The notes: generated from the sequence alone by a model not told the origin. 47,042 bases of DNA from Acidobacteriota bacterium (GCA_031369785.1 JANMPI010000510.1:1-47042), one strand, 5' to 3'; positions 7,397 to 39,152 are shown, counted from the stretch's first letter. Numbers and translations are program-made.

Positions 7397-7425
7397 ATCA
7401 CCTCGAGTTCTACCGCGGCCGCAAG

Positions 7426-9491: not shown

Positions 9492-9496
9492 GCCTC

Positions 9497-17117: not shown

Positions 17118-17137
17118 GGGCGTGGTAGGTTTACCCC

Positions 17138-21641: not shown

Positions 21642-22409
21642 TCAGCGACCGTCTTCCAGCGGCAGCTCCACCTCGACCAGGGTTCCGGCCCCCGGGGCCG
21701 TCCGCAGCTCGAACCGCCCGCCGAAGAGGTCCACGCGGTCGCGCATCCCGCGCAGCCCGCCTCCGTGCTGGTCCTCCCGGGCCGCGAGCGCCGGCCCGGG
21801 GTCGAATCCCCGCCCCTGGTCCCGGACGCTCAGGAAAAGCCGGTCCCGCTCCCGGCGCACGCGGACCTCCGCCGACGCGGCGGCGGCGTGCTTGGCGGCA
21901 TTGGTGAGCGCCTCCTGGACTAGGCGGTAGACGATGGTCTCCAGGTCGGGCCCGACGCGCTCCTCCATGCCCTCGATGGAGAGCTGGACGCCCAGACCCG
22001 TTCCTTCCTGGAGCGTCCGCGCCAGCCAGCGCAGGGTCGGCACCAGGCCAAGCTCGTCGAGCATCTGCGGGCGCAGGAGGCGGGAGAGCTGGCGGACGTC
22101 CTGCAGGGAGCGGTCCGCGATCTGCGTAAGCTCGGCCAGACGGGCTCGCAGCACCCCGTGGTCCGTCGCCGATCGCTCCAGGATCTCGAGCTGCATCTTG
22201 AGCGCAGTCAGGGACTGGCCCACGCCGTCGTGCAGCTCACGGGAGATTCGCCCCCGCTCCACTTCCTGGATCCGCAGGATGCCGCGCGCGATGAGGCGGA
22301 AGCGCTTCTCGCCCTGAGTCAGGCGGTCGAGCAGCCGGGCGTTCTCGGCGGTGATGCGGGCCACATCGCGGGCAAAAGCCTGCTGGCCATCCACCGTCTC
22401 GTCGCTCAC
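21642..22409 (-). CDS. Soluble HisKA_3-type sensor histidine kinase without a recognisable input domain
   Basis: H-box RISRELHDGVGQSLTALKMQLE, N-box EALTNAAKHA, G1 DQGRGFD and G2 GGLRGMRDRV..GG. There is no TM segment. The GTG at 22409 overlaps the TGA of the upstream kinase gene (GTGA). The ATG at 22448 listed in the track would give a 43-nt overlap. Confidence 0.88.
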   Translation of the reverse strand: MSDETVDGQQAFARDVARITAENARLLDRLTQGEKRFRLIARGILRIQEVERGRISRELHDGVGQSLTALKMQLEILERSATDHGVLRARLAELTQIADRSLQDVRQLSRLLRPQMLDELGLVPTLRWLARTLQEGTGLGVQLSIEGMEERVGPDLETIVYRLVQEALTNAAKHAAAASAEVRVRRERDRLFLSVRDQGRGFDPGPALAAREDQHGGGLRGMRDRVDLFGGRFELRTAPGAGTLVEVELPLEDGR

Positions 22410-25400
22410 GGGCGGGCCGTGGTGCGCGCCGCTGATTCCCGCACCCACGGGATGGCGTCGAAGGAGGCGCGGACGTCCGTGGCCATGCCTTCGCGCAACC
22501 GTGCGATCCCGCGCGCCGTCTCCTCGTACTCCCGCGCCGCGGCGGAGGCATCCCCTCTTTTTGCGAGGACCACGCCCAGGAGGGCGTGGAGCCGGGAGAG
22601 TCCCGCCTCAAAACCGTGCCGGCTCGCGGCGGTGAGGGCACGGCGGGCCATCTCTTCGGCCTCGACGAGATGGCCGCGCGCGAGCTGGGCGCGGGTCATC
22701 GCTTCCGCGGCGCGGATACGCAGCATGACGTCTCCCAGTGCGTCGGCCTCCCGCTGCAGGGGACGCAATTGCAAGGTGGCCGCCGCCGCATCGCCGACCG
22801 CGACGAGAACGGCCGCCTGCGCGATGCGGGCACGGAGATACGCGGCCCGGCTGTTGCTCCCACGCGCCTGCTCGACCGCGCGCGCGAGGGCGCGCCGGGC
22901 ATCATCCCCCGCCCCCTGCCGAGCGTGCCATTCGCCGAGGACGACATGGTAATCGGCGGACTGCTCGCGATTGCCGGTCTCGCGCACCCAGGCCTCGGCG
23001 CGGGTGAGCCCCGCCCGTGCCTCGTCCAGCCGCCCGAGCTCCAGCAGCGCGGCCGACTGCTTGATGGTGAATTCGGCCAGCCCCCGCTTGTCTCCCAGGC
23101 CCTCGAGCACGGCGAGGGCCTCGCCGAAGGAGGCGAGCGCCGCCCCGTACCGCCCTTCATATTGCTGAAGCAGCCCCATGTTTCCCAGGGAGACAGCGGT
23201 CGCGTTCTTGTAGTCGATCTCGCGGCTGTCTTCCAGGGCTTTCGCAAAGGCCTTCAGCGCCTCGCCCCAGCGCCCCTGCACAATGTGGAGGAATCCCAGG
23301 TTCTGCGTAGACAGGACGATCCCGGCCTTCTCCCCGAGCTTCCGCCGGAGGTCGAGAGATTGCTTCCAATACACGAAGGCGTTGTCGTACTCGCCCTCCA
23401 CGAAGAATATGTAGCCGACGTTGTCGTAGCTCTGCGCCATCTGGCGCTCGTCTCCCATGTTGCGCCGGACCTTGAGCGCGTCCTGGTACGCCTTCAGCGC
23501 CTGCCCGAACTCGCCCCGGTTCTCGTGCACGAGGCCGAAGTCGTTCAGGACATCGGCGAGCCCGGCCCGGTCGCCGATTTTTTCCGCGATGCGGCGCGCC
23601 TCCTTCAGGTCAGGCTCCGCGGCGGCGAGGTTGCCCATCGAAATGTGCATCCGCGCCCGGTTCTTGAGGCTGGTCGCCACCCCGCGCTCGTCCCCGAGGC
23701 GCTGGCGGATGGCCGCGGCGGCGGAGTACTTCTCGATCGCCTGCGGGTAGTCCCCCAGTTGGTGGTACGCCACGCCCATCGCGTTCAGCACCTCGGCCTG
23801 CCCCTGCTCGTTGTGGAGCTGGCCGTGCAGGGCCAGCGCCCTCACGAGATGATCCTTCACCGCACGGCCGGCGTTTCCCATGAGGATGGTGTTCTTCCCC
23901 AGCAGGAACCACACGCGGGGGTCGCTGCGGTCGAGCTGCGACGCTTTTTCAAGGGTTGCCACGGCCCGGGCCACGTCGCCCTGACTCGCCTGCGCCGAAG
24001 CGAGATCGAGCAGCGCCTCGAGGTCGTTGGGGAAGCGGCGGGCCAGCTCGACGTAGCTCTTCTCCGCTTCCGCGGGCTCGCCGCGGAGGAGGGCCACGCG
24101 TGCCCGGATGCGATATCCAAGGCGTGCTTCGCTCGCTCCGGCGGCCCGGGCGGCGCGCTCCGCGACGGCAAGGGCCTTTTCTTCGTAGCCCAGGTTCTGG
24201 TAGGTCTCGGCCAGGCGCTCCAGGGCCACGGCGAATTCCGGGTCGGCGGCGACCGCCTTCTCCAGGGCAGGAGCGGCCGACACGTATTCCCCCCGGGCCA
24301 GGAGATCGCGGCCCTCCTGGTAGGCCCGGGCCGCGGCCAGCGAGGTCGTCTCCGGGAGCGCGGCCGCCGCCCGCGCCGCCTGCTCCGCGCCGAGATCGCG
24401 CCGCAGCCGATCGCCCAGGGCGTCCACCATGCGAAAGAGACCGTCATCCCCGGTGGACTCGTCGCCGAAATGACGCGTCTCCATCACCCCCGAGGGACTC
24501 ACCGCGACCAGCCGCAGGTCAATCCGCACGGTGGAGCCCGCCTTGCGCACGCTGCCGGCCACCAGGCGGTCGACCTCAAGCGTCTCCGCCAGTTGCCGCA
24601 GGGCGCGCTCGTCCTGCGTCCGGCCCAGCTTCAGATCACGCAGCGAATGGAAGACCCGCTGCGCGTCGAGCACACGAAGGGCGGGGCTCTCCGAGAGACC
24701 GGCAGCCAGCATCTCGGGGATGCCGGTCCCGGCCCAGTCGAGGTCGGGGTCCGCGGTCTCGACGTTCAGGGGGAGGACGGCAACCGAGTGCAGGGCCGCC
24801 ACCGGGGGCGCGGACGGCGACGGCAATCCGCCGGGCGGCGCAGGGCCCCGATTCCGCTGCGCGCCCCAGATTCCGGCCGCGGCGAGCACTGCGACGCACG
24901 CGGCCAGCCAGTACTGACGGCGGATCGCCGGCGTCCGCACGGCCCGCCGATCGAGGTCCGCGACCAGGTCGCGCGCGGACTGGTAACGACGGGAAGGGCT
25001 CCGTTCCAGGCACCGCGCAATCGCGGCGCGCACGTAGGCGGGGACCGCGATTCCCGTCTCGCGGATGTCGCGGGCGCGTCCGCCGATGCGCTGGGCGAGG
25101 ATCTCGGCCTGGGACTCGCCGGGAAAGGGCAGTTGCCCGGTGAGGATCTCGTAGAAAAGGATGCCGAGGGCGTAGACGTCGCTGCGGCCGTCGATCGCCT
25201 CCCCCGCCACCTGCTCCGGCGAGAGGTAATCGGGCGTTCCCACCACGGCCCCGGTGCGGGTGAGCCCCTCGCGGCCGAGGGAGCGGGCGACGCCGAAGTC
25301 CGTGACATAGGCGGTGTCATCCGCCTCGACCAGGACATTGGCGGGCTTGAGGTCGCGATGGACGACCCCGGCGTCGTGCGCCTGCTGCAGGGCTTCCGCG

Positions 25401-25810
25401 ACTTGGCGGACGATCCGTTCCGCGCGCGCAACGGGCAAGGAGCCCTCCGCGCGCAGGACCTCGAGCAACGAGCGCCCCTCCACGTAACGCATGGTCAGGA
25501 AGCGCAGGCCCTGGTCCTCGCCGATGTCGTGGATGCGCACGACGTTGCGATGCGTGACCTGCCGCGCCAGCACCAGCTCGCGCCGGAAACGCGCGATCCA
25601 GTCGGGATCGGCGCCCAGGTCCGGCCGCAGGACCTTGAGCGCGACATCCTCGTCCAGCTCGAGGTCGCGGGCCTTGTAGACGACACCCATGCCCCCGATG
25701 CCCGCGGTCGCGATCACACGGTAGCGGCCGGCGACGACGGCCCCGGGGGCCAGCTGGCGCGCCATGTCCACGCTGGTGTCGGTGTCCTTCAAGGGCGGGC
25801 GGGCGCCCAC
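22406..25810 (-). CDS. Hanks-type Ser/Thr protein kinase with one TM helix and a very long extracytoplasmic TPR region
   Basis: GIGGMGVVYKA, VALKV, HRDLKPANVL, DFGVAR and GTPDYLSPE. The TM helix is YWLAACVAVLAAAGIWGA at about residues 300-317. It is followed by a VAVLPLNVETADPDLDWAGTGIPEML-type module and about 700 aa of TPR-like repeats. The start is GTG 25810 or ATG 25765. Confidence 0.9.
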   Translation of the reverse strand: MGARPPLKDTDTSVDMARQLAPGAVVAGRYRVIATAGIGGMGVVYKARDLELDEDVALKVLRPDLGADPDWIARFRRELVLARQVTHRNVVRIHDIGEDQGLRFLTMRYVEGRSLLEVLRAEGSLPVARAERIVRQVAEALQQAHDAGVVHRDLKPANVLVEADDTAYVTDFGVARSLGREGLTRTGAVVGTPDYLSPEQVAGEAIDGRSDVYALGILFYEILTGQLPFPGESQAEILAQRIGGRARDIRETGIAVPAYVRAAIARCLERSPSRRYQSARDLVADLDRRAVRTPAIRRQYWLAACVAVLAAAGIWGAQRNRGPAPPGGLPSPSAPPVAALHSVAVLPLNVETADPDLDWAGTGIPEMLAAGLSESPALRVLDAQRVFHSLRDLKLGRTQDERALRQLAETLEVDRLVAGSVRKAGSTVRIDLRLVAVSPSGVMETRHFGDESTGDDGLFRMVDALGDRLRRDLGAEQAARAAAALPETTSLAAARAYQEGRDLLARGEYVSAAPALEKAVAADPEFAVALERLAETYQNLGYEEKALAVAERAARAAGASEARLGYRIRARVALLRGEPAEAEKSYVELARRFPNDLEALLDLASAQASQGDVARAVATLEKASQLDRSDPRVWFLLGKNTILMGNAGRAVKDHLVRALALHGQLHNEQGQAEVLNAMGVAYHQLGDYPQAIEKYSAAAAIRQRLGDERGVATSLKNRARMHISMGNLAAAEPDLKEARRIAEKIGDRAGLADVLNDFGLVHENRGEFGQALKAYQDALKVRRNMGDERQMAQSYDNVGYIFFVEGEYDNAFVYWKQSLDLRRKLGEKAGIVLSTQNLGFLHIVQGRWGEALKAFAKALEDSREIDYKNATAVSLGNMGLLQQYEGRYGAALASFGEALAVLEGLGDKRGLAEFTIKQSAALLELGRLDEARAGLTRAEAWVRETGNREQSADYHVVLGEWHARQGAGDDARRALARAVEQARGSNSRAAYLRARIAQAAVLVAVGDAAAATLQLRPLQREADALGDVMLRIRAAEAMTRAQLARGHLVEAEEMARRALTAASRHGFEAGLSRLHALLGVVLAKRGDASAAAREYEETARGIARLREGMATDVRASFDAIPWVRESAARTTARP

Positions 25811-25815
25811 GCGCG

Positions 25816-26766
25816 TCAGAGCGCCGGCGGATCGAGGGCGAGGCGCGGCGGGGAGGGCTCGTGCGCGCGGAGCGCGAGCGATCCGATGCGCTGCTGCAAC
25901 TCCTCGACCGAAGCGCTGGTGCGGGACGGGCGCGCCTGGAGCTCGGCGATCCGCCGCTCCAGCTGCAGGCCGCCAATGACCAGCGCCGTGTGCTCGGCGA
26001 GGGCTTCCAGGATCTCCAGGTCCAGGTCCGTGAAGCCGCCGCCGGCCGTGGTGCTGTCCACGTAGAGGATGCCGAGCAGGCGGTCGTCCTGGAGCAATGG
26101 CACGCAGGCCAGGACCCCCAGGCGCATCTCCACCACGCTCGCCCGCGCGCCCAGCAGCGGATGGCGCTGGGCATCGGAGACGACGACGCTGGCATGGGTC
26201 TCCACCGCGTGCCGCAGGGCCCCGACGCTGCCCGTGAACCCGTCGTCCCGCACCTGGCCGGGAGCGAACCCGGCCGCGACCTCCGCGTGCAGCCGCCCGT
26301 CGGCGCCCGCGATCAGGACGAACCCCCGCTCGGCGCCCGTGGCCCCGAGGGCGGATTCCAGGAGCCGCAGCAGCAAGTCGAAGGTGTCCAGATCGGCGTT
26401 CAACCTGCGCTTGAGCTCGATGCTGGTGTGGAGCCGCGCGAGGCGCTGTCCCGAAAGGGCGCGCGCCTCATCCTCCGTGATGCGGTCGAAGCGGCCGAGG
26501 AGGCCGCCAAAGCTCAACCACTCTCCGCCCTCCAGGCGTCGGCCGGAGACGGCCATCCCGTTCACGGAGGAGCCGTTCTTGCTGCCGGCGTCTTCGAGAG
26601 TCCACCCGTCGCTCCAGACCAGCCGCGCGTGCTGTTTCGACACCCGGCCATCCTCGATCACCAGCCCGCATTCGGGATCGCGCCCGATGGTCAGGCTTTC
26701 TCCGTCACCGATCACGATGAACCTGGCCGGCCGGTGCGGGGGATGAAGTGTCAGCTTGGCGGGCAT
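25816..26766 (-). CDS. FHA domain - GAF domain protein
   Basis: The ATG at 26766 (MPAKLTLHPP) is the chosen start. FHA motif: LTIGRDPECGLVIEDGRVSKQHARLVWSDGWTLEDAGSKNGSSVNG. GAF-like motif: GAERGFVLIAGADGRLH...LGILYVDS. The upstream 26767-26901 part of the listed ORF looks non-coding. Confidence 0.85.
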   Translation of the reverse strand: MPAKLTLHPPHRPARFIVIGDGESLTIGRDPECGLVIEDGRVSKQHARLVWSDGWTLEDAGSKNGSSVNGMAVSGRRLEGGEWLSFGGLLGRFDRITEDEARALSGQRLARLHTSIELKRRLNADLDTFDLLLRLLESALGATGAERGFVLIAGADGRLHAEVAAGFAPGQVRDDGFTGSVGALRHAVETHASVVVSDAQRHPLLGARASVVEMRLGVLACVPLLQDDRLLGILYVDSTTAGGGFTDLDLEILEALAEHTALVIGGLQLERRIAELQARPSRTSASVEELQQRIGSLALRAHEPSPPRLALDPPAL

Positions 26767-26774
26767 CGGCGTGG

Positions 26775-26799
26775 CCCTTCCACGCGTTCTCGGGAAGGG
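26775..26799 (-). promoter_or_regulatory. 7-bp stem hairpin whose 3' arm contains the SD-like GGAAGGG of the FHA-GAF gene
   Basis: The minus strand reads CCCTTCC-cgagaacgcgt-GGAAGGG-ccacgccg-ATG. The arms are perfectly complementary. The purine-rich arm lies 8 nt upstream of the ATG at 26766. Confidence 0.35.
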
Positions 26800-26875
26800 A
26801 AGCGGTCCCGGGAGTTCAGCGTATGAAGGATCTTCGCCCCTGCCCCCGGGGGAGTCAAGACAGCCCCAAAAGGAG

Positions 26876-26908
26876 CGCTCGCGTGGACCCGGAAGGCCCA
26901 CGCGAGCG
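26876..26908 (-). terminator. Intrinsic-terminator-like hairpin downstream of metalloprotease 1
   Basis: Perfect 11-bp inverted repeat CGCTCGCGTGG / CCACGCGAGCG with an 11-nt loop. It lies 27 nt after the TAG at 26938-26936. On the minus strand it is followed by CTCCTTTTGGGG (a T4 tract). Confidence 0.6.
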
Positions 26909-26935
26909 GGGTACGACCCGGGCGACGGTGCGACG

Positions 26936-29900
26936 CTACTGGTTCAGCACCGTGCGCGCGATGCTGATCTCGATGGAGAACGCTCCGGGGACGTTCAGCA
27001 CCTGCACCCGGTAGACGCCCGGAGCCGACACCGGCTTGTCCAGGCCGGAGACGGTGAGGCCCGGGATCAACGCTTCACCGGTGGCGATCAGGTTGCCCGC
27101 GGGGTCGAGGAGCCGCACCGTCAGCGGCACAGCACTTCCGGTCACGACCACGGAGACGTCCCGGTCGAGCGAGCCTACGTTGACCGTCCGCTCGACGACC
27201 GGCCCCTCGCTCGACGAAGCCGTGCTCGTGGTGGTGACCGACCCGGATTCCGCGGCGGCGGGATTGGGCCCGCTCCCCGCGCACCCGAAGGCGAAGCCGT
27301 CCACGGTCACCACGCCCGTCCGGTGAACGAGCTTGAACTCGTGCGCGGCCAGGGTGAGGCCGGAGTAGGTGAGGCGGTGCCCGAAGGTCGGCGATCCGCT
27401 GCCGCTGGCATAGGACACCGTGCCCCGGAGGATGCCGTCGATGAAGACGTCCGCCGTCCCCGCCGCGGGCGTGATCACGAAGAAGTAGGTGATCGACGTG
27501 GCATTGAAGACGACGCGCGCGGTGGGGGTGCCGGACCCGTTGTTTGTCCCCGTGCGCTCCTGATAGCGGCCGTTGGAGGCGCGCACGTCCGTCTTCCGAT
27601 GCCAGCCGTTCTTGTACTCGACCGCGCGGTCGCCTTCGTCGATGGAGACGCAGTTCTCGTTGACCGTCACCGTGACGTTGGCGGGGTCGGTGCCGCCCCG
27701 CCCGTCGGAGTTCGTGTACGTGAACGTGTCGGCGCCGATGAAGTTCGCGTCCGGGGTGTAGGTGACGGTGCTGCCGTTGGTCGTGGCGGTTCCGTTGGGC
27801 GGATCGCCGACCGCGGTGACGGTCAGGGGGTCGCCGTCGGGGTCGCTGTCGTTCCCGAGCACGTTCACCGTGACCGGGGTGTTCACGATGGTGGTGGCGG
27901 TGTCGTCCACCGCGTCGGGGGCGGCGTTGCAGATGTCGGACTGCTGGTCGGGGCCCTGGAGCAGGACGTTGGTGAGCCGGACCTGGTCGAACTGCAGTCC
28001 TTCGAGGGACTGCAGGGCATCCGAGCCGTAGGCCACCTCGATCTGCACGGGCTGGCCGGCGTAGCCCGCGGCTCCCAGGGCGGTCGCGCTCCAGGTGCTC
28101 TCCGCCCACGGATTGGCCGGCTGGGTTGCGGAAGTCGCCCACCCGGGGCCGTTGTTGCAGCCGGTGTAGGAGTTGGCCGCGTTGTAGAGCCGCCCGCCGC
28201 TCGGGTTGACGATCGTCGTCTGCCCCTGCGCGTTGACGATCCCCACGTTGCCGCGGTCGTAGAACGGCGTCGCGGGCGTCTCGGGCTCGGTGGCGAACTG
28301 GTTGTAGAGCGACAGGGTCGAGCTCGCGGTGAGCCGCACCTTCGGCGATCGCGCGCGGTCGCAGGCGTTGTCCGCCCCGGAGGACGACTTCAGGTAGAAG
28401 GCGCTGCCGTCTGCTCCCGGCGGCGGGAGGTTGGTGCGGTCGAAGGTCCCCGAGAACGTCGTCCAGCCCTGAGCTCCGCTCTCGAAGTCGAAAATCGCGT
28501 TCCCGAGCACGAGGTCGGTCTCGGTATCGCGCACGGTGAGGATTCCCGTGGCCATGACGGGGCCGCCGGGGCTGTCGGCCTCCACCGCGACGTTGAAGGT
28601 CAAGGTGGACTGGGAAGCCAGGCCTCCCGCGCGGAAGCGGAAGGTCGCGGGCCCCGTCGAGTTGGCGCCTCCGCATCCGGCGCCCAGCGACCCCACGACG
28701 ATGGGCAGGGTGGTGAGGATCGACGTCTGCCCGCTGGACGGCTGGATCGCCGTGACGCGCACGTTGGTCAGGTTCATGCCGCCGGTGTTCACGACGTTGA
28801 AGGTCAGGCCCGCGATCTCGCAGTTGTCCACGAACGGATCGCCGTCGCCGGTCTCGATGACGGGACTCGCGCCTTTATCTTCGACCGCGACGCCGGGGCC
28901 GGTGAGGATGCCCGGCGCGAGCGGCGTGACCATGGCGCAGGCGCTCATGGGCCCGGCGCAGGATTCGGCGGGGACGCCCAGCGCGCCGCCCACGGCCACC
29001 ACGCTGTAGTAGTAGGTGAGCCCGTCGAGGAGGTCGCTCTGGGTGAAGGTGAAGCTGCCCGCGGCGGCCGGCACCTCGGCGACGCGGGTCTTGCCGAAGT
29101 CGCATCCGTGAACGCCGTCCGTCCGCAGCACCCAGTACTCGGCCGCGCCGGGAACGGCGGGCCAGGTGACGGTCGCGCTCTGCACGCCGGCGGTGGCCGT
29201 GACCGTGGGGGCGGTGATCGGGGCCGGAGTGGCCACGCAGCCCAGGTTCATCGGAAGCGGCGCGCCGCAGGCGATGCCGTGGCGGCTGAAGGCGTCGTGG
29301 ATGGCCACCATGTGCGGCGTGCCGTTGCCGATGGCGCCGTCGTCGTCGTCCGCAGCCAGGAAGTTCAGGTACCAGCTGTCCGCGTTGCACCCGCCGAGGG
29401 CGACGTCGCAGGTGTAGCCGAAGGTCACCCCGCCCGCGGCGCGGTAGAACAGCCGCGTGGTGAGGACCAGCGACGAATTGTCGTCCATGAAGCGGGGCAG
29501 GGCGTTCGTGCACCGGCCGCCGGCCACTGTCCCCGAGGCGTGGCTCTCCCACCGGCGCGTGTGACAGGGCAGGTCACGCTTGAGGAGGTCCCACACCGAC
29601 TCGCCGATGATCGTTCCCTCGCAGTGGGTCGAGCGGCCGCAGGGGCCGCCGCCCAGGGCGGGGGTGGGCGGATTGAGAACGGGGCAGCCGCCCGGGATGG
29701 TGGGGTTCTGCCCCAGCACCCAGGCGAGGTCGTGCGGCCGCTGCGACTGGCGCTTCTTCCAATCATCCTCGCGGACGCCGGTGCACTCCGTGCACGGGTC
29801 GCCGTTACCGCCGCAGGTGCCCGTGGTGTAGAAGCCCCGGCCGATGCACGAGGTGTTCAGCCGGAAGATGGCCGCCATGTCCGCGTACGCCTCGCCGGGG

Positions 29901-31426
29901 GAGCTGACTCCCGGGTGGTCGTCGAAGTGGTCGAGCCCGTGCCCCCACTCGTGGTCGAAGACGGCCGCGATCTCGCCCGTATTGCGGCACCGGCCGCTGT
30001 TGGGCGACGCCGAGACCTCGCGATAGAAGTTGATGGAACCGGTGGCGGGATTGGCGGTATCCGCAAAGCTGAAGAACGCGTTGCACGAGTTGTTGATGTT
30101 CATGTTGGCCGGGAGCTGGCGGTTGAGCCATTGCCTGGACACAGCACCGGGGCCCAGCCAGCTCTTGGCCTGGTCGATGATGCGGTTCACTTCGTAGAAG
30201 CCCGTGCGCGCGGAGTGGGTGTCCCCCGCGGAGTGGCCGGGGGGCACGGCGCAGTCGGTGCCGGCGCTCATCCCGAGGTCCAGGGCCGGGCAGGCGGTGG
30301 ACTCGTTGATGATGCCGCAGTTGTCCACGATCTTGACGAAGGGACCGGTCAGGTCCGTGCGGAACTGCCCGCTCACCGGCACGAGGCCCTCGCTGTTGGA
30401 CGTCAGCCGCGTGCTGTCCTGCTTGAACACGTAGGCGCGGGACATCGGGTATCCGGGCTGCTCGACGCCGTCCGGGATTCCGCCCGGCGAGGCGCCGTCG
30501 TTGCTCACGGGGAAGATGCCGCCCACGACCTTCTTATGGTCCATGTACTGGTTGGTGTCGGCAAAGGCGAGGAGATCGCCGTCGTGAGCGTCGACCAGGC
30601 CCTCCCAGCCGCCGAGGCTTCCATTCACCTGCGGGCCGACGGCCCAGGCCAGGCGATAGCGGTACCCGCTGCCCTCGATCGAGGCACTGCCGTCGCCGCC
30701 GGCCATGGGCAGCAGCACCAGCTGCGCGCGGCGCCAACTCGCGATCGTGAAGCCCGACAGGTGGCGCGCCACCACGGCCTGGGCCTGCGATGCGGACAGG
30801 CGCGGGGTGGTGGAAACGTCGACCGCACCCCAGCTCTGTGTCCCATACAGGACGAGGTTGCCGTGGTTGATCGTCGCCTTGACGAAGCTCCGCCGCACGG
30901 GAACTCCGTTCACCACCCGATCGACGTTGATGTGCACGAGGCCGCCGTTGTCGTAGCTGCCGATGCTCGGCGGGCCCAGCTCCGCCGCGTCGATGCCCAG
31001 CTGCGCCCGGTGCGCGGCCAAGTAACCGCGGAACGCCTGCCACACCGCGTCCTTGTACGCGGCGTCGCCGGTCGGAGCGCCCAGACCCAGTCCCTGCCAG
31101 GTGAGCCGGTTGCCCACCCCGGTTCCGGGAACGACCGGAGCCGCAGGAAGCAACGTACCCCACCGCCCGCCGCGCACGTCGTAGAAGCCGAGCGCGCCCG
31201 CGACTCCCAGCGTGTCGAGCTGCGGGCCCAGGCGAGCGGCCATCTCCGGGGGAAGCTTCGCGATGGGCTGATGGACGTTGCGGAGGTAGAGCCCATCAAC
31301 CTCGAAGGAGAGCGCCGCGACGGGATCGCCCTCGGGGGGGACCGCCGCCCCGGCCAGGGCGGGCAGGAGCATCAGTGCGCCCACGACCAGGCGTCGAGTC
31401 CGGTTCTGCGCGCTTGACTTCATCAT
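26936..31426 (-). CDS. Giant secreted multidomain zinc metalloprotease (gluzincin, FTP/PepSY-type propeptide, M36/M4-like HEWGH core), paralog 1
   Basis: The ATG pair at 31426/31423 is preceded by GAGGAG. Signal peptide: [28 protein letters not shown]. The HEWGH motif is encoded at 29953-29939, followed by PGEAYAD (candidate third zinc-ligand Glu). The core is Cys-rich. Further modules: FN3-like ([21 protein letters not shown]), cadherin/VCBS-like ([18 protein letters not shown]...[12 protein letters not shown]) and a PPC-like C-terminus. Confidence 0.8.
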
Positions 31427-31491
31427 GCTCTCCTCGGTGGACGCTCGATGGCGTCGCAGACAGGTGTCTGTTTTGACGGCGCGATGCGCGG

Positions 31492-34400
31492 TCACTGCGG
31501 GCAGCCCACGACCTCGTAGCTCCCGCCGGCCACCAGGCTGTCCGGCATGTTGTCGGGCGTGAGGGCGCTACCGTCCGGGCTCTCGATGCGGATGCGGCTC
31601 AGAAAAGCCGTCAGCTTCTGCCCGACCTGGGGGTTGCCGATCGCGCTTCCCGACACGACGATGCGGATCGTTCCGTCGGCGCTGAAGCTGCTCCCAGGGT
31701 CCGCCGGCGTTCCCGGGGCGGTGTAGGGAGTCACGGTGGCGCCGTTGCCATGCGCGAACGCGGGGGGGTTGGTAGGGAGCACGTTCGCCGTATTCATGCG
31801 CACGAACCGCACCGCCCCGTCCGCCCCCGTGTAGGAGATGGGCCAGGTCGTCGCCTGCGGAACCGAGGCCAGGCTCGTCATCTTCAGGATGAAGACGAGC
31901 TTGCCGTCCGCAGTCTGCGCGATGGCCGCGCTGCGAACGTCGTGGCCGGGTCCTGTGCTGGCGTCGCCGACAGGGTCGGTGAGCACGGTGAAGCCCTCCG
32001 CGCAGGGATCGCCGGCCACGGTCAAGGTGACGCGGCCGGTGTCGGATCCGCCCCGGCCATCGCTGATCACGTAGTCAAAGGTGTCGACGCCCTCGAAGCC
32101 GGCCGGGGGCGTGTAGGTGACTCGGCTGTCGGGGTTGAGCACCGCCTGCCCGAAAGCAGGGGCGCTCACGCTCGTCACCACCAGCGCGTCGTTATCGGGG
32201 TCGGTGTCGTTGCCGGCGACGGCGACGGTGTTGGGGTGATTGCGCGGAACGGAGATGGCGTCGTCCACCGCGGTGGGCGGCTGGTTCGCCGGAGCCTGGC
32301 ATGCCCCGGGGGTCCCGCTCGGCGGGAGCGGCGTGATCGCCGCGCAGTCGCTCATCGGGCCCGCGCACGCATCGGCCCCAATGCCCGCGGGGACGAGGCC
32401 GCCCACGGGGAGGACGCTGTAGTAGTAAGTCAGCCCGTCGAGGAGGTCGCCCTGGGCAAAGGTCCGGGGCGCCGTGGCGGCGATGCGCGCCATGCGCGTC
32501 TTGCCGAAGTTGCAGCCGTGGATCCCGTCCGTGCGCAGGATCCAGTATTCGGCCGCGCCGGGCACGGCGCTCCAGGCGATGCTCGCGCTGCGCGGACCGG
32601 CGGATCCCGTCACCACCGGCTTGGCGGGCGGCGCGGGAGTGGCCAGGCAGCCGCCGTTGAGCGGCGCCGGGGCCCGGCAGGCGAGCCCATGACGCCGGAA
32701 GGCGTCGTTGATGGCGAGCATGTGGGGCGTCCCGTTGGCGAAGGTGCCGTCGTCGTCGTCCGCGGCGAGGAAGCTCATGTACCAGCTGTCCGCGTTGCAG
32801 CCGCCGTTGCGCGCCGCCCCGGTTCCCGGCGCCTGGTCGCACTGATAACCCAGCGCGACGCCGCCCGCGGCCAGGTAGTAAAGCCGCGTCCCGAGCACCA
32901 GGGCCGTGTCCGCATCCATGGTCGGGGCGGCGTTCGCACCGCGACAGCGGCCACCTGCGATGGGGCCGTTGCCGCCCGGGAACGGCGCCTCCCATCCCCG
33001 TGTGTGGCACGGAAGGTCCCGCTTCAGGAGATCCCAGAAGGCCTCGCCCAGGATCGTGCCCTCGCAGTGCGTGCCACGCTGGCAGGGGCCGGAGTTGAAC
33101 GGCGTGGCGGGGACGAGGACGGCCCCGCAGTTCCCCGGCACCGTCGGGTTCTGGTCCAGCACCCAGGCCAGGTCGTGGGGCATCCTCGACTCGCGCTTCA
33201 TCCAGTCGTCCTCGCGCACGCCCGTGCACTCGGTGCAGGGGTCGCCGTTGCCGGTGCAGCGGCCGCCGATCACGTTGTTCAGATAGAACCCGCGGCCGAT
33301 GCACGACGTGTTCAGGCGGGCGATGGCGGCCGCGTCGGCGTAGAACTCGCCGGGCAGGCTGACCCCCGGAGAGTCGTCAAAGGTGTCGAGACCGTGACCC
33401 CATTCGTGGTCGAAAACGGCCGCGATCTCGCCCGTGTTGCGGCAGGTGTTGGAACCCAGGGCGCCCTGCCGGTAGAAGTTGATGGAGCCGGTGCTTACTG
33501 CCGCGGTGTCGGTGGGCGAGAAGAACGCGTTGCAGGCGTTGTTGATGTTCATGTTGGCGGGGAGCTGGCGGTTGAGCCATCCCGCCGGGGTGTTCGCGGT
33601 GGCCTCCGGGCCGAGCCAGGTCTTGGCCTGGTCGATGAGGCGATTCAGCTCGTAGAACCCGGTTCGCGCGGAACGCGTGTCGCCCAGGGAGTGACCGTCG
33701 GGGCGCGCGCAATCCGTCCCCTGGCCGATGCCGAGGTCGAGGGCGTCGCAGGTCGTCGTCTCGTTGACCGCACCGCAGCCGTCCTGGATGCGGACGAAAG
33801 GGCCGGTGAGGCTGGTGCGGTAGGCGCCGCTCGCGGTGACCAGGCCCTCGCTATTGGCCTGGATCCGCGTCGTGCCCTGGAACACGTAGGCCCGCGACAT
33901 CGGATAGCCGGGCTGCTCGAAGCCGTCGGGCACTCCGCCGGGGGATTGACCGTCGTTGCTCACGGGAAGCACCCCGCCCACGATCTTCTTCTGGTCGAAG
34001 TAGGAGTTGGTGTCGTGGAACGACAGCAGCTCGCCGCTATGGGCGTCCACCAACGCCTCCCACGAGCCCTGGCTCCCATCGACCCGCGCGGCGATCGCCC
34101 AGGCCAGCCGGTACGTGTACCCGCGGCCCACCGCGGCCGTGGCGGTAGCACCGCTGGCCATGGGAAGGATGACGAGCGCGGGTTCGCCGAAATGGGCGAC
34201 GGTGAGTCCCTTCAGATGGCGGGCCACGAGGCCGCGTGCGTCATCCGCGGAGAGTCCCGGAGTGGCCGCGACATCGATCGCGCCCCAGTTCCGCGCCACG
34301 TACAGGACGAGGTTGCCGCTGTTCAGGGTGGCCTTCACGAAGCTGTCGCGGACTGGGATCCCTTCATGCACGCGACCGGCATGAACGTGCACCAGCCGGT

Positions 34401-34878
34401 TGCCCTCGTGGGCGCCGATGGTCGGCGGGGCGAGCTCCGCCACGTCGACGCCGAGCTCGGCTTCGTGCGTTTCCAGCCAGGCCGTGAACGCCTGCCACAC
34501 CGCCTCCTTGTACGCGGCGGCGTCGGCGGGCGGGGCGGCCGCCCAGCCGAGCGTGTTGCCCACTCCCGGCCCCGGAACCAATGGAGTGGCCGTGATCAGC
34601 GAACCCCAGCGCCCGGCGCGGACGTCGTACCCTCCCGCTTCGCCCTCCACGGAGAGCGCGGAGAGGTCGTCGCGCAGCTTCCGGTTCAGCTCGTCCGGCA
34701 GTTGATCGAGGGACAAGTGGACGGCGCGGACGAACAGGTCGCGGTGCCCGGTCACACGCCGTTCGACGCGATCGCCCTCGGGCGGGACGGCCGCGACGGC
34801 GTCTCGCGCGGGAAGCAGTAGAGCGACGACGAAGGAAGCGCAAACGAGCGCGATCGCGCCACGAGCCGTCGTGTTCAT
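31492..34878 (-). CDS. Giant secreted multidomain zinc metalloprotease, paralog 2
   Basis: The ATG at 34878 is preceded by GGAGG 8 nt upstream on the minus strand. Signal peptide: [29 protein letters not shown]. The HEWGH motif is encoded at 33408-33394. It is colinear with paralog 1 through the propeptide, catalytic, Cys-rich, FN3 and cadherin-like parts. The C-terminus differs. Confidence 0.8.
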
Positions 34879-35008: not shown

Positions 35009-36712
35009 GTGAGAGACGGGTTGCGGGTGATCGCCATCGTGCCGGCCCGCGGCGGCACCGATCCTGTCCCGTACCTGAACATCAAGCGCCTCGGCGACTG
35101 CCCGCTGCTCGCGCACACCCTGACCGCGGCCCGCGATGCGCCGTCGGTCGACCGCGTGGTGGTGACGACGGACGACGCGCGGGTGGCCGAGGTCGCGAAG
35201 AGCTACGGCGCCGACGTGCCGTTCCTGCGCCCGCCCGATCTCGCCGCCGATCTGCCCAGCCTGAAGCCGGTCATCGTGCACGCCGTGGCCGAGCTCGAAA
35301 GGGCCGGCGAGCACGCCGACGTCATCGTCATCCTGCAGGCCACGACGCCGTTCCGCGAGGCGGAGGCCATCGAGTCCGCGATCTCCACGCTTCTGGAGGG
35401 CGCCTTCGACACCGTGGTCTCGGTGACCAAGGACCGGACGCTCAACTGGCGCGCCGCGGACGGCCTGCTGCGGCCTCTCTTCGAGAAGGAAGGCCGGCGC
35501 GAGGAGCAGGAGCCGATCTACCGCGAGAACGGCGCGGTGGTGGCGCTGCGCCGGGGCGTGCTCGACTCCGCCTCGCGGTTCGGGGACCGTGTCGGCTACG
35601 TGGTCCTCGACAAGCGCGCCGGGTTCACCGTCTACGACCTCGAGGACTTCTGGATGGCGGAGCGCCTGCTGCGCCAGCCGCGCGTGCTCTTCCGCGTCGA
35701 CGGCAGCACGGGGATGGGCCTGGGCCACGTCTACCGCTCGCTCGCCATCGCCGATGCTCTGCGCCAGCTGAGCCGGGCCGATATCGCGTTCCTGATGAGC
35801 GCGGATCACCCGGAGGGGCTGATCACCGTCTCGCGCCGCGGCTATCCGGTGCGCGTGGTGGGCGACGGCCGGCTCGACAACTACCTCGAGCACATCCGGG
35901 ACTTCTCGCCCGAGATTCTGATCAACGACCTGCCCACGGTTGAGGCCGCCTACATGCGAGCGCTCAGCCACGTCGGCGCGACCACCGTGAACCTCGTCGA
36001 CACCCCGGAGGACCTGGAGACCGCGGAGCACTACGAGCAGGTCATCGTCTCCGTGATGAGCCAGGACCGCGAGACGCCGGAAGGCTTCTACGCCGGTCCC
36101 GCCTACGCGATCCTGCGCGAGCAGTTCCGCGGGCGGGCCAAGGACGTGCGGCAGAGGCCGCGCACGGTGCTGCTGAGCTTCGGGGGCAGCGACCCGCAGG
36201 GGCTCACCCTGAAGGCGGCGCGGGCGCTCGACGCCCTCGATGGATCGATCGAAGTGGTGGCGGTCGCGGGGGCCGCGTTCTCGTATCGCGCCGAGCTCGC
36301 CGCCCTCGTCCCCACGCTGCGGCGGCCGCTGCGGGTGATCAACGACGCCGGCGGGCACATCTCGGAGCTGATGCTGGAGGCAGACCTGATGGTGGGATCG
36401 GGCGGCATGTCGGTGTACGAGATCGCGGCCCTCGGAACGCCCGGGGTCATCCTGGGCCAGAACGTGCGCGAGGACCGCCGCATGCGCGAGTTCGCGCGAC
36501 ATGGGACGGTCCACTATCTCGGCCTCGGTTCCGAGGTCGCGGAGGCGGAGATCGCCACTGCGGTGACGGCGCTGCTGCGCGACTTCCCGGGCCGTCGGGC
36601 GATGAGCGAGCGCGGCCGGGCTCTCGTGGACGGGCTCGGCGCCTCGCGGGCGGCGGAGGCGGTGCTCGAGCGCCGCAAGGTCCCGCGCGCGGCGGAGATG
36701 GCCAAAAAGTGA
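35009..36712 (+). CDS. Fusion protein: N-terminal CMP-nonulosonate (NeuA/PseF-type) cytidylyltransferase + C-terminal PseG/SpsG-like UDP-sugar hydrolase (GT28-like) domain
   Basis: N-terminal part: VIAIVPARGGTDPVPYLNIKRLGDCPLLAHTL..VVVTTDD (CTP_transf_3 pattern). C-terminal part: VLFRVDGSTGMGLGHVYRSLAIADAL and VLLSFGGSDPQG..GGMSVYEIAALGTPGVIL (PseG pattern). GTG start at 35009. 567 aa in one frame. Confidence 0.75.
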   Translation: MRDGLRVIAIVPARGGTDPVPYLNIKRLGDCPLLAHTLTAARDAPSVDRVVVTTDDARVAEVAKSYGADVPFLRPPDLAADLPSLKPVIVHAVAELERAGEHADVIVILQATTPFREAEAIESAISTLLEGAFDTVVSVTKDRTLNWRAADGLLRPLFEKEGRREEQEPIYRENGAVVALRRGVLDSASRFGDRVGYVVLDKRAGFTVYDLEDFWMAERLLRQPRVLFRVDGSTGMGLGHVYRSLAIADALRQLSRADIAFLMSADHPEGLITVSRRGYPVRVVGDGRLDNYLEHIRDFSPEILINDLPTVEAAYMRALSHVGATTVNLVDTPEDLETAEHYEQVIVSVMSQDRETPEGFYAGPAYAILREQFRGRAKDVRQRPRTVLLSFGGSDPQGLTLKAARALDALDGSIEVVAVAGAAFSYRAELAALVPTLRRPLRVINDAGGHISELMLEADLMVGSGGMSVYEIAALGTPGVILGQNVREDRRMREFARHGTVHYLGLGSEVAEAEIATAVTALLRDFPGRRAMSERGRALVDGLGASRAAEAVLERRKVPRAAEMAKK

Positions 36713-37686
36713 AGGCACTGCTGACGGGGGGCGCCGGGTTCGTGGGCAGCCATCTCGCGGAGGCGCTCCTCGCCCGCGGGGACACCGTCCACGTCCTCGA
36801 CAACCTCTCGACCGGGTCGATGGACAACATCGGCCACCTGAAGGGGCGCGAGCGCTTCCACTACATCGTCGACACGGTGATGAACGAGCGCGTGGTGGCG
36901 GAGGCGGTGGACCGCGTCGACGTCGTCTACCACCTCGCGGCCGCGGTGGGCGTAAAGCTCATCGTCGAGAGCCCCGTGAACACCATCGAGACCAACGTGC
37001 ACGGCACGGAGATGGTGCTGAAGGTGGCGAGCAAGAAGAAGAAGAAGGTCCTGATCGCCTCGACGTCGGAGGTCTACGGGAAAAGCGAGGACGTCCCGTT
37101 CCGGGAGGACGCCGACCTCGTCCTCGGCGCCACCACCAAGGGGCGCTGGAGCTACGCCTGCAGCAAGGCCATCGACGAGTTCCTGGCCCTCGCCTACTGG
37201 AAGGAGAAGGGGCTGCCCGTGGTCGTCTTCCGCCTCTTCAACACCGTGGGGCCGCGGCAGACCGGCCGCTACGGGATGGTCATCCCCAACTTCGTGAAGC
37301 AGGCGGTGCAGGGAGAGCCCATTACCGTCTACGGCGACGGCACGCAGAGCCGCTGCTTCACCTACGTGAGCGACGTGGTCGAGGCGCTGGTCAAGCTGGC
37401 CGAGCACCCGGCCGCGGTCGGGCAGGTGATCAACATCGGCAACGATCACGAGGAGATCTCCATCCTCGATCTCGCCCGGCGGGTGAAGGAGCGCACGCGC
37501 TCGGCGAGCCCGATCGAGATGGTGCCGTACGACAAGGCCTACGAAGAAGGCTTCGAGGACATGCCGCGCCGCGTGCCCGATCTCACCAAGGTCAGGGCGC
37601 TCCTCGGGTACGAGCCGAAGGTGCACCTCGACGAGATCCTGGACCGCGTGGCCGAGTACTTCACGTCGGACCGGGCGCGGGTTTGA
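36709..37686 (+). CDS. Extended-SDR sugar-nucleotide dehydratase/decarboxylase/epimerase, ArnA-C-terminal/UXS-like
   Basis: MKALLTGGAGFVGSHL. The canonical YxxxK sits in an ArnA-like context, RWSYACSKAIDE. FNTVGPRQ is also present. GTGA overlap at 36709. Confidence 0.85.
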   Translation: MKALLTGGAGFVGSHLAEALLARGDTVHVLDNLSTGSMDNIGHLKGRERFHYIVDTVMNERVVAEAVDRVDVVYHLAAAVGVKLIVESPVNTIETNVHGTEMVLKVASKKKKKVLIASTSEVYGKSEDVPFREDADLVLGATTKGRWSYACSKAIDEFLALAYWKEKGLPVVVFRLFNTVGPRQTGRYGMVIPNFVKQAVQGEPITVYGDGTQSRCFTYVSDVVEALVKLAEHPAAVGQVINIGNDHEEISILDLARRVKERTRSASPIEMVPYDKAYEEGFEDMPRRVPDLTKVRALLGYEPKVHLDEILDRVAEYFTSDRARV

Positions 37687-39152
37687 CCGGGGACCGCACC
37701 TCCCTCCTCCGCCACCTCGGCAAGCTCGCCTCGCACTCGGCGGTCTACGGGCTCGCCGACGTCTTCACCACCGTCGTCAACCTCCTCCTCATCCCGCTGT
37801 ACACGACGTACCTCGGCGCCACCGAGTACGGGCACCTCGCCCTCCTGATGCTGTTCTCGACCGCGGCCAAGATCCTCTTCCGCCTCGGCCTCGACGCGGG
37901 CTTCTTCCGCGTGCACTACGACATGACCAGCGACTCGGAGCGGCGGACCCTGGCCGGCACGGTGGCGCTCTTCGCCGCGGGCGCTTCGACGGTGCTGATG
38001 GGGCTGGTGCTCGTCCTCCGCGGCCCGCTCACGCGGGCCTTTCTCGGCGCGGGGATCCCGGAGAGCTGGATCGTCCTCGCCGCTTCGGACGTGTACCTCG
38101 GCACCTTCGCGTTCGTGCCGCTCAGCCTGCTGCGCATCCAGGACCGGCCGCAGCTCTTCTCGGCGCTCTCCGTGGTGCGGCACACCGTGAACATCACGCT
38201 CAAGGTCGTCCTGGTGAGCCGCGGGCTGGGCATCTCCGGGATCCTGTGGGCGGACGTCGCCGCCACCGCCGCCTTCGCGCTCGTGCTGCTGCCCATCCTG
38301 GTGAAGAACGCGGCCGCCGCCTTCTCGATGCCGCTGCTGCGCGATGTGCTCACCTTTGCCCTGCCCAAGGTGCCGCACGGGGTGATGCTGCAGGTCCTGA
38401 ACCTCGCCGACCGCAAGATCCTCGATCTCTTCGTCACCCGCGCCGAGGTCGGCGTCTACCAGATGGGCTACACGTTCGGGGGCGGGGTGAAGTTCGCGAT
38501 GTCCGCCTTCGAGCCCGCGTGGGGGCCGTTCGTCTATGCGCGGGCGCGGGAGGAAGGCGGCGCTTCGACCCTGGCGCGGGTCGCGACCTACGCGTTCGCG
38601 GCCTTTGCCGCCGCCGCGCTCGCCGTGGCCGCCCTCGGGCCCGATCTCCTGCGCCTCATGACCCCGCGCAATCCGGCGTTCCATGCCGCGGCTCCGATCA
38701 TCCCCGTCATCGCACTCGCGTACCTGCTGCACGGCGTGTTCCTGCTGACGTCGGTCGGTATCGGGATCGCCCGCCAGGCGCGGTACTACCCGATGGTCAC
38801 GGGCGCCGCCGCGGCCACGAACGTCGCCGCGAACTTCGCACTCATCCCGCGCTTCGGCGCCATGGGCGCGGCCTGGGCCACCGTCCTCGCCTACGCGGTG
38901 ATGGCGGGCCTCGGTCACGTCTTCTCGCGGCGGGTGTTCCCGATCCCCTTCGAGGGATCGCGGCTGCTGCGGATCGCGGCCGCGGCCGCCGGGGCCTATG
39001 CGCTGTCCACCCTTGTCGGCGGCGCGGGGACCGCGGCGGCGAGCGCGCGGGCCCTGACCCTGATCGCGTTCCCCGTCCTTGCCCTCGCCCTGGGTGTCCT
39101 CCGTACCGACGAGTCACAACGGCTCCGGCGTATATTCGGAGCGAGGGTCTGA
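37683..39152 (+). CDS. Wzx-like oligosaccharide flippase (MOP/polysaccharide biosynthesis protein family)
   Basis: 489 aa with about 12-14 TM segments. The N-terminus HSAVYGLADVFTTVVNLLLIPLYTTYLGATEYG is typical of PST-family flippases. TTGA overlap at 37683. Confidence 0.8.
   Translation: MTGDRTSLLRHLGKLASHSAVYGLADVFTTVVNLLLIPLYTTYLGATEYGHLALLMLFSTAAKILFRLGLDAGFFRVHYDMTSDSERRTLAGTVALFAAGASTVLMGLVLVLRGPLTRAFLGAGIPESWIVLAASDVYLGTFAFVPLSLLRIQDRPQLFSALSVVRHTVNITLKVVLVSRGLGISGILWADVAATAAFALVLLPILVKNAAAAFSMPLLRDVLTFALPKVPHGVMLQVLNLADRKILDLFVTRAEVGVYQMGYTFGGGVKFAMSAFEPAWGPFVYARAREEGGASTLARVATYAFAAFAAAALAVAALGPDLLRLMTPRNPAFHAAAPIIPVIALAYLLHGVFLLTSVGIGIARQARYYPMVTGAAAATNVAANFALIPRFGAMGAAWATVLAYAVMAGLGHVFSRRVFPIPFEGSRLLRIAAAAAGAYALSTLVGGAGTAAASARALTLIAFPVLALALGVLRTDESQRLRRIFGARV

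Follow-up and report, generated by a model that had tools for sequence, protein, structure and literature searches.

The metalloproteases closest to the proteins described here are those of MEROPS family M4 (thermolysin, bacillolysin, aureolysin, vibriolysin, pseudolysin), in which a signal peptide is followed by an FTP/PepSY propeptide and a two-lobed catalytic domain, and those of M36, the fungalysins, in which the third zinc ligand lies in a motif of the type G-E-x-x-x-D and the catalytic domain is larger than in M4. In the M13 enzymes, which to our knowledge lack an FTP/PepSY propeptide, the third ligand is found some 60 residues downstream. Here we describe two adjacent genes, P2 and P1, within a stretch of 47,042 nucleotides (nt) from an Acidobacteriota bacterium (GCA_031369785.1 JANMPI010000510.1:1-47042; the window, counted from its first letter), whose products share features of these enzymes. 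Bacteria of this phylum abound in soil and sediment and probably contribute to the turnover of protein and other biopolymers.

It is probable, in our judgement, that P2 and P1 are secreted zinc metalloendopeptidase zymogens – each with a putative signal peptide, an FTP/PepSY propeptide, a thermolysin-fold catalytic domain and an FN3 domain, followed by C-terminal modules that differ between the two – and that they constitute an old tandem pair from an unrecognised, M4-related family. The reading draws on sequence comparison, on predicted structures and on analogy with M4.

Results

The shared core and its propeptide

Residues 19-838 of P1 and 20-853 of P2 are 63% identical (BLASTP), a stretch running from the signal peptide to the FN3 domain, with the propeptide and catalytic domain between; the catalytic domains by themselves are ~70% identical, and the cadherin-like (Big_9) domains that lie further downstream (P1 1167-1255, P2 865-954) are 56% identical (BLASTP). 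Both genes are on the minus strand, P2 upstream, with a gap of 65 nt between them. An earlier reading of this DNA by a model that saw the sequence alone (the original prediction) gave exactly these sizes and limits – adjacent, same-strand genes for proteins of 1496 and 1128 amino acids (aa) – and the six peptide strings that it quoted as common to the pair are all present in both proteins at matching positions (Table 1). The FN3 and cadherin-like domains that it named are confirmed by a profile match to 3mpc and by Pfam Big_9. P2 is identical to database protein P0031. With more than 690 relatives returned by a word-indexed protein search, two high-confidence structural models and significant Big_9/Cadherin and FN3 matches, P1 and P2 are real genes.

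A propeptide of the M4/M36 kind, with FTP and PepSY parts, had been proposed for the pair, and several comparisons agree with it. Aligned with hhalign, P1 132-287 matches residues 63-219 of the thermolysin precursor with 93% probability (E 3e-7), while Foldseek matches the N-terminal part of P1 to the propeptide of vibriolysin MCP-02 (3nqy_A, 1.7e-5), the PepSY domain of YpeB (5boi) and the fungalysin propeptide (4k90_B, 1.4e-4). FTP and PepSY are sub-threshold in P1 and P2 themselves in a permissive Pfam scan, at corresponding positions of the two proteins; among 40 diverse representatives of the family, six have a significant PepSY match. The thermolysin query used in these comparisons was verified by its match to 1kei in the PDB (residues 1-316, 706.8 bits), and 120 genuine M4 precursors were retrieved for comparison with the thermolysin family.

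Fold and active site of the catalytic domain

P1 1-838, P2 and 65 homologues were aligned (alignment A1, 67 sequences), and an AlphaFold2 model of P1 1-838 was built from this alignment (predicted local distance difference test score, pLDDT, 85.8; predicted template modelling score, pTM, 0.84). The top PDB matches to the model by Foldseek are the M4 enzymes gentlyase (4ger_A, 9.2e-7), aureolysin (1bqb, 2.6e-6) and thermolysin (5fxn, 1.1e-5); over the M4 structural matches the target-normalised template modelling (TM) score is 0.58-0.64 and sequence identity is 10-13%. These matches support the gluzincin type – HExxH plus a downstream Glu in ExxxD – that had been claimed from the sequence, and motifs and fold alike are consistent with clan MA(E). 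The segment CNAFW...HEWGH...GEAYAD falls in register with thermolysin N112-A-F-W, H142-E143-x-x-H146 and E166-x3-D170 (residues 111-175; hhalign, with weak statistics, P 1e-3 to 3e-3).

Conservation within the family is centred on these motifs. HExGHxxD...ExxxD is invariant in 67 of 67 aligned sequences, and the residues invariant in A1 (P1 numbering) are H492, E493, G495, H496, D499, E512, D516, H565, H601, H705, H716, R407 and nine Cys. In the catalytic domain five other Cys reach 90% conservation or more, which brings the conserved Cys to 14. HE[WY]GH was found in all 120 homologues checked, W being usual and Y rare; the original prediction was thus right to call the Cys-richness and the W of HEWGH atypical of M4 and M36. 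Each copy keeps all of the invariant zinc-ligand and catalytic residues, with no inactivating change in either, and both look active on this evidence.

Just after the zinc-ligand helix stands a conserved SC-x10-C-x6-C-x2-C arrangement (P1 C527, C538, C545 and C548; window 29762-29848, minus strand), which may represent a pair of disulfides or else a structural metal site of the Cys4 kind.

The domain departs from thermolysin in several ways. The spacer between HExxH and the third-ligand Glu is 15 residues in both paralogues (H496-E512), compared with 19 in M4, and there is therefore no equivalent of Tyr157: the hhalign zinc-site alignment needs a gap of four residues, and the loop contains no Tyr. 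The whole domain measures ~430 aa, compared with 316 aa in thermolysin. No global alignment of the catalytic domain with thermolysin was obtained by hhalign; a relaxed local alignment, of low confidence, is colinear over the whole length and places THCEG (H601) on GVHIN (H231) and RLFY on KIFY. The placement of THCEG on H231 agrees with the order of helices in the P1 core model.

Profile searches, in which Pfam, NCBIfam and PDB sequences stood proxy for MEROPS, did not map the catalytic domain cleanly to any characterised family. Pfam searches of P1 and P2 returned Big_9/Cadherin_5/Cadherin_4 only (E about 1e-23), with no match to the catalytic domain even at E<=10; NCBIfam returned just a tandem-repeat domain, below cutoff, along with T9SSA_dep_M36 at E 0.23 over 37 residues of the propeptide only. 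Peptidase_M4 (PF01447) and Peptidase_M4_C (PF02868) were below threshold in P1, in P2, in 21 catalytic domains of the family and in 40 diverse relatives, none of the 40 matching M4 or M36 at E<=1e-3, and Peptidase_M36 (PF02128) gave no match at E<=10 in P1, P2 or the 21 catalytic domains. Searches of all PDB sequences with phmmer and with profiles found no significant match to the catalytic domain, and the family profile drew no M4 or M36 chain at E<=10. A literature search on HEWGH, on Thermoanaerobaculia metalloproteases and on new thermolysin-like, PepSY or FTP families found nothing relevant. Judged by its motifs and its model, the core is that of a gluzincin with the thermolysin fold, and its propeptide is truly of the M4/M36 type; the catalytic domain has apparently diverged beyond ordinary profile detection.

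A large family with a fixed core and a variable tail

The named relatives from the word-indexed search are proteins of Thermoanaerobaculia metagenome-assembled genomes (MAGs), entered as 'hypothetical', 'CARDB domain-containing', 'Ig-like domain-containing', 'BACON domain-containing' or 'trimeric autotransporter adhesin', and a peptidase Pfam domain is found in none of them. A profile of the catalytic domain (A2), searched against 1.84 billion cluster representatives (clusters at 50% identity), matched 3353 clusters at E<=1e-3, 2335 at E<=1e-10 and 636 at E<=1e-30. In most of the top 150 matches the catalytic domain begins near residue 300, and protein lengths range from 330 to 4458 aa. Scanning one genome per species gave at least 565 loci, mostly in Thermoanaerobaculia and other Acidobacteriota (Holophagales, Terriglobia); the family also occurs in Wenzhouxiangella, Xanthomonadales/Lysobacterales, Arenicella, Polyangiaceae and an Acidimicrobiia bin. 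Of the 80 best loci, nearly all bear a MAG or uncultured-isolate label.

The C-terminal modules of 40 diverse representatives are of many kinds (Big_9, InhA-like MAM, PPC, P-domain, CARDB, Calx-beta, dockerin, TSP3, lectins and others), so that the family is one of a fixed core and a variable tail.

The age of the pair

The cores of P1 and P2 are 71% identical at the DNA level, and at 189 of 532 identical amino-acid positions the codons differ. Clustering of core sequences separates 31 short proteins (1099-1169 aa) from 24 long ones. Either protein resembles its orthologues from other genomes (up to 72-77%) more closely than it resembles its neighbour; these orthologues are of corresponding length, 1099-1169 aa for P2 (n=30) and ~1400-1457 aa for P1. 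The short-then-long order, with gaps of 17-21 nt, recurs in three related loci (L001, L002 and L003), and two or three tandem copies are present in all of the closest loci (L001-L008, L010) and in only 3 of ~70 more distant ones. From the DNA identity, the separate short and long clusters, the recurring order and the tandem copies in the closest loci, we infer that the duplication is old and that the pair has been maintained as a unit; the 'recently duplicated' of the original prediction has to be given up, given a core just 71% identical and a pair conserved in other genomes. Since P1 and P2 have been kept as a short-then-long pair, probably within one operon, they have most likely diverged in function and are not redundant.

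Other arrays were seen. L004 (2516-13292) has three tandem copies of the family, and L008 and L010, which overlap (CAWHTA010000002.1, 145-164 kb), together have two to four, depending on the matches in their common stretch. Such arrays point to local expansion beyond the pair.

Modules that differ between the copies

The extra block of about 300 aa that had been noticed in P1 measures 328 aa (839-1166), is absent from P2 and contains the quoted 15-aa string at residue 979. It had been called MAM/CBM-like, and the MAM half of the label has weak support: InhA-like MAM (PF20773) is below threshold in P1 (E 0.018; E 0.013 against InhA) and significant (3.5e-14) in 2 of 40 other members. Of the 22 sequences in alignment A3, P1 alone has the Big_9 domain that follows, and the 21 aligned long orthologues all lack it. 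It is cleanly missing from P0007, P0006, P0013 and P0012; it is present in P0065 and in P0059, the latter with three copies. Its 56% identity to the Big_9 domain of P2 suggests that a P2-like gene may have been its source in the distant past.

The C-termini of the two proteins – 238 aa in P1 and 174 aa in P2, the latter earlier put at ~190 aa – are unrelated, as had been predicted, with no detectable similarity even when profile is compared with profile. For the 'lectin-like' label given to the end of P1 there is a hint in sub-threshold matches to CBM_6 and Laminin_G_3, in orthologues only, where GH115_C and Golvesin_C also match below threshold. The PPC-type terminus proposed alongside it finds no support: PPC (PF04151) has no match in P1 or in seven orthologous C-termini at E<=10, and occurs in one other family member (1.6e-24). 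Some long orthologues have CARDB and a different module in place of the last 238 aa. Because the presence of Big_9 varies and the last 238 aa have been replaced in some long orthologues, gain, loss and replacement of modules is, from these comparisons, real, and appears to be spread over long evolutionary time.

The 174-aa domain of P2 is kept by all 30 short orthologues and has many invariant residues; identity over P2 aa 855-1128 is 58-73%. Its model is an all-beta sandwich (pLDDT 89.4) for which Foldseek, over PDB and viral structures, gives generic tandem Ig/cadherin-like matches only (TM 0.2-0.36). The domain has no Pfam or PDB sequence match and, profile against profile, no similarity to any P1 module. 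A word-indexed search with P2 aa 955-1128 returned 15 short fragments only (Big_9 or CARDB, then the domain) and no new context, a search of doubtful coverage in that it missed the 30 full-length orthologues; with so short a query, a failure to match need not mean that the domain is lacking. A role in binding or targeting is what we infer for this domain.

Transcription unit and gene neighbourhood

Directly after P1 lies a terminator-like hairpin with a 15-bp stem (11 G-C pairs), followed by CTCCTTTTGG; its position suggests that P2 and P1 form a two-gene operon ending there. A promoter scan upstream of P2 found nothing.

Long open reading frames (ORFs) run antisense to both genes on the plus strand, at 26756-31417 (1553 aa) opposite P1 and at 31750-34821 (1023 aa) opposite P2, and similar shadow ORFs are found throughout the window. 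As G+C in the window is ~71%, these are most likely by-products of composition rather than genes.

Downstream of P1, on the minus strand, two genes lie ~5 nt apart: 25816-26766 encodes an FHA+GAF protein, and 22406-25810 a Ser/Thr kinase that has long arrays of TPR. In L001 (14405-20002) a single gene of 1865 aa carries FHA, GAF, Pkinase and TPR; the two ORFs seen here could be the result of a split, a fusion or an assembly frameshift. A functional link of these genes to the pair was considered and rejected as unlikely, since the neighbours are common to L001, a close relative, and not to L002 or L003; the hairpin lies between them and the pair.

Genes for cell-envelope glycans surround the pair (window 4002-19997 and 35009-39152; Table 1). 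In L001, L002 and L003, too, the pair has PMT_2 genes close by, and L001 adds genes for NeuB and CTP_transf_3. Together the YfhO-like, PMT_2, GT4, NeuB+SAF, CTP_transf_3, epimerase and flippase genes suggest a nonulosonic-acid or surface-glycan locus.

Table 1. Features of the P2-P1 locus, with positions in the window and residue numbers in each protein.
Feature	Position in window	Strand	Residues	Basis and remarks
P2 gene ('short' paralogue, upstream)	31492-34878	minus	1128 aa	ORF and start codon; MNTTARG start, GGAGG upstream
P2 signal peptide, Sec-type (putative)	34795-34878	minus	1-28	read from sequence; predicted cleavage after AVA, before AVPPEGD; without lipobox
P2 propeptide, FTP/PepSY-type (predicted)	33991-34794	minus	29-296	Pfam FTP E 0.16, PepSY E 0.23; homology to P1 region
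P2 catalytic domain, thermolysin-like, Cys-rich (predicted)	32647-33990	minus	297-744	identity to P1 domain; every invariant A1 column kept
P2 zinc site (predicted)	33334-33408	minus	H491-E492-W-G-H495 ... E511-x3-D515	motif, alignment A1
P2 FN3-like domain	32320-32634	minus	~749-853	profile match to Fn3-like protein 3mpc
P2 Big_9/cadherin-like domain	32017-32286	minus	865-954	Pfam Big_9 E 1.2e-23
P2 C-terminal beta-sandwich domain	31495-32016	minus	174 aa	defines 'short' paralogues; predicted all-beta model
P1 gene ('long' paralogue, downstream)	26936-31426	minus	1496 aa	ORF and start codon; MMKSSAQ start, GAGGAG upstream
P1 signal peptide, Sec-type (putative)	31349-31426	minus	1-26	read from sequence; low-confidence N-terminal helix in model
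P1 propeptide (predicted)	30536-31348	minus	27-297	FTP ~150-197, PepSY ~212-288, low-confidence linker 290-297; Pfam FTP E 0.03
P1 catalytic domain, thermolysin fold, Cys-rich insertions (predicted)	29237-30535	minus	298-730	Foldseek; motifs in register with thermolysin
P1 zinc site (predicted)	29879-29953	minus	H492-E493-W-G-H496 ... E512-x3-D516	invariant across 67 aligned sequences
P1 FN3-like domain	28913-29224	minus	~735-838	3mpc profile match E 1.5e-7; many FN3 structural matches
P1 Ig-like (CARDB-like?) domain, putative	28502-28912	minus	839-975	absent from P2; DUF7507 E 0.043, weak; conserved in long orthologues
P1 MAM-like domain, candidate	27932-28501	minus	976-1165	absent from P2; InhA-like_MAM E 0.018; InhA 4yu5 E 0.013; strongly conserved in long orthologues
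P1 Big_9/cadherin-like domain	27653-27931	minus	1166-1258	Pfam Big_9 E 6e-23; insertion that most long orthologues lack
P1 C-terminal region	26939-27652	minus	238 aa	putative lectin/CBM-like domain (1259-1395), then ~100-aa terminal domain
Terminator-like hairpin	26866-26908	minus		stem-loop 26908-26876, T-rich tail; 28 nt past P1 stop; pattern match only
Shared string AAVPPEGD			P1 27 / P2 29	
Shared 13-aa string			P1 322 / P2 321	
Shared 20-aa string			P1 480 / P2 479	
Shared 15-aa string			P1 542 / P2 545	
Shared 10-aa string			P1 615 / P2 618	
Shared string FLAADDDDG			P1 689 / P2 703	
YfhO-like	4002-6647			
PMT_2 protein	8273-12046		1257 aa	
GT4 glycosyltransferase	12444-14006			
NeuB+SAF	18090-19997			
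CTP_transf_3 cytidylyltransferase	35009-36712			divergent from P2
NAD-dependent epimerase/dehydratase	36709-37686			
Polysaccharide flippase	37683-39152			

Discussion

Proposed mechanism

The mechanism that we propose is drawn, in all its steps, from analogy with M4 enzymes. The precursors would be exported by the Sec system, with the propeptide acting as folding aid and inhibitor until its removal by self-cleavage, possibly near the disordered linker (P1 aa 290-297). In the mature enzyme (P1 numbering) zinc would be bound by H492, H496 and E512, and water would be activated by E493 as general base; D516 would support a zinc-binding His, as D170 does in thermolysin, and the N449-A450-F edge strand would bind the substrate backbone. 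H601 (of THCEG) is the probable counterpart of thermolysin H231, stabilising the transition state, with H705 as the alternative. The ~14 conserved Cys probably form disulfides, and these would stabilise the large insertions that appear to account for the length of the catalytic domain relative to thermolysin. The likeliest role of the C-terminal beta-sandwich modules is to target the two enzymes to different substrates or surfaces, the candidate targeting modules being the Ig-like, MAM-like, Big_9, CBM-like and terminal domains in P1, and Big_9 plus the family-specific 174-aa domain in P2.

Alternative explanations

Several observations weigh against P1 and P2 as thermolysin-like proteases. 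The hhalign probability for the catalytic core against thermolysin is just 10-22%; no profile match of the catalytic domain is significant, the best being Peptidase_M4 (E 0.0052; 4 of 21 members matched) and Zmp1 of M13 (E 0.049); the equation of H601 with H231 depends on a low-confidence alignment and on helix order, H705 (in NGTPH) being the alternative; and P2 has Arg403 (window ~33672-33674, minus strand) at a nearly invariant His, the H404 of P1, in a GDTHS motif that is present in P1 and at least 90% of the family and whose His most short orthologues keep. The H404R change might also be read as the mark of a pseudoenzyme, P1 and P2 being surface adhesins or binding proteins in which the protease-like domain is a non-catalytic scaffold: there are many Ig, cadherin, FN3 and MAM-type modules, and in some database sources relatives appear under the names 'trimeric autotransporter adhesin' or 'Ig-like domain-containing protein'. 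Yet the zinc-ligand and catalytic motif residues, which pseudoenzymes usually lose, are all invariant in both paralogues and family-wide, and a propeptide of the cleavable type is kept; we find this account very hard to credit. No more belief can be given to a recent duplication followed by module shuffling, which would make P1 and P2 young and largely redundant copies. Genes that are adjacent and on the same strand, long identical peptide strings, Big_9 domains 56% identical and a Big_9 in P1 that is a lineage-specific insertion are what such an event might leave, but the core has diverged in DNA (71% identity), in protein (63%) and in the codons of identical residues, each paralogue is closer to its orthologues than to its neighbour, and the order of the pair is conserved in L001-L008.

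If P1 and P2 are proteases of the thermolysin fold, they might still be merely divergent members of MEROPS M4, with no separate family to be recognised. M4 enzymes are, after all, the top Foldseek matches; the propeptide is homologous to that of thermolysin (93% probability), NAFW, HExxH and ExxxD are in register, and four of 21 catalytic domains have sub-threshold Peptidase_M4 matches. We nonetheless think this unlikely, given Peptidase_M4 and Peptidase_M4_C below threshold in both paralogues and in the 21 and 40 relatives, a family profile that finds no M4 or M36 PDB chains at E<=10, the 10-13% identity in structural alignments, a spacer of 15 rather than 19 without a Tyr157 equivalent, and a catalytic domain ~115 aa longer with 14 conserved Cys. 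What we put forward instead, tentatively and as a realistic possibility, is that the HEWGHG(L/M)D proteins represent a new MEROPS-level family of the thermolysin clan. It would combine an M4-type propeptide with a strongly remodelled, disulfide-rich catalytic domain, maybe with a Cys4 site (C527/C538/C545-x2-C548), and would have hundreds to thousands of members in Acidobacteriota and in some Gammaproteobacteria and Myxococcota; the Thermoanaerobaculia would carry it as a conserved two-gene cassette of differently targeted enzymes acting together on parts of a complex substrate.

Members bear names such as 'hypothetical', 'CARDB domain-containing' or 'trimeric autotransporter adhesin', and inventories of Acidobacteriota peptidases therefore miss a large set of proteins that are probably extracellular proteases; a hidden Markov model (HMM) and a MEROPS entry for the family would improve these inventories. 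With a propeptide that is still M4-like and a catalytic domain beyond profile detection, the family is also a useful case of the tolerance of the thermolysin fold to change. Current understanding is not overturned: the proposed mechanism and biology are conventional for a thermolysin-like enzyme.

Comparison with known families

Among families other than M4, M13 (neprilysin, Zmp1) offers a weak local match around NAF... and HExxHG(F/L)D (E 0.049 against Zmp1), which is not significant and covers ~80 residues only. With M6 (InhA) the accessory domain alone may be in common: the extra block of P1 resembles the MAM domain, below threshold, and there is no match to the InhA/M6 catalytic domain. 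The fungalysins (M36) are likewise thermolysin-like gluzincins with an FTP-containing propeptide, to which P1 has a structural match (4k90_B, E 1.4e-4), whereas Peptidase_M36 has no Pfam match and no M36 catalytic chain is among the top 50 structural matches.

The likeness to M4 is more extensive. It takes in the order of signal peptide, FTP/PepSY propeptide and two-lobed catalytic domain; the NAFW substrate-binding strand, the HExxH helix and the Glu of ExxxD as third zinc ligand; a His that opens a later helix, the probable H231 equivalent; and C-terminal accessory beta-domains, as in vibriolysins. The best fold matches, made with the predicted P1 core model, and the propeptide profile match are to M4 as well. 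Unlike M4, the catalytic domain has no significant profile match and is 10-13% identical in structural alignments; the HExxH-Glu spacer is 15 against 19; the domain is of ~430 aa with 14 conserved Cys against ~300-316 aa; the HEWGHG(L/M)D signature and an FN3 domain directly after the catalytic domain are conserved; and the C-terminal extensions are much longer and more variable, in proteins of 330-4458 aa. As membership by HMM and the spacing of the zinc ligands both place P1 and P2 outside M4, we file them as a family-level variant that is new within the thermolysin clan, with M4 and M36 as the closest known families.

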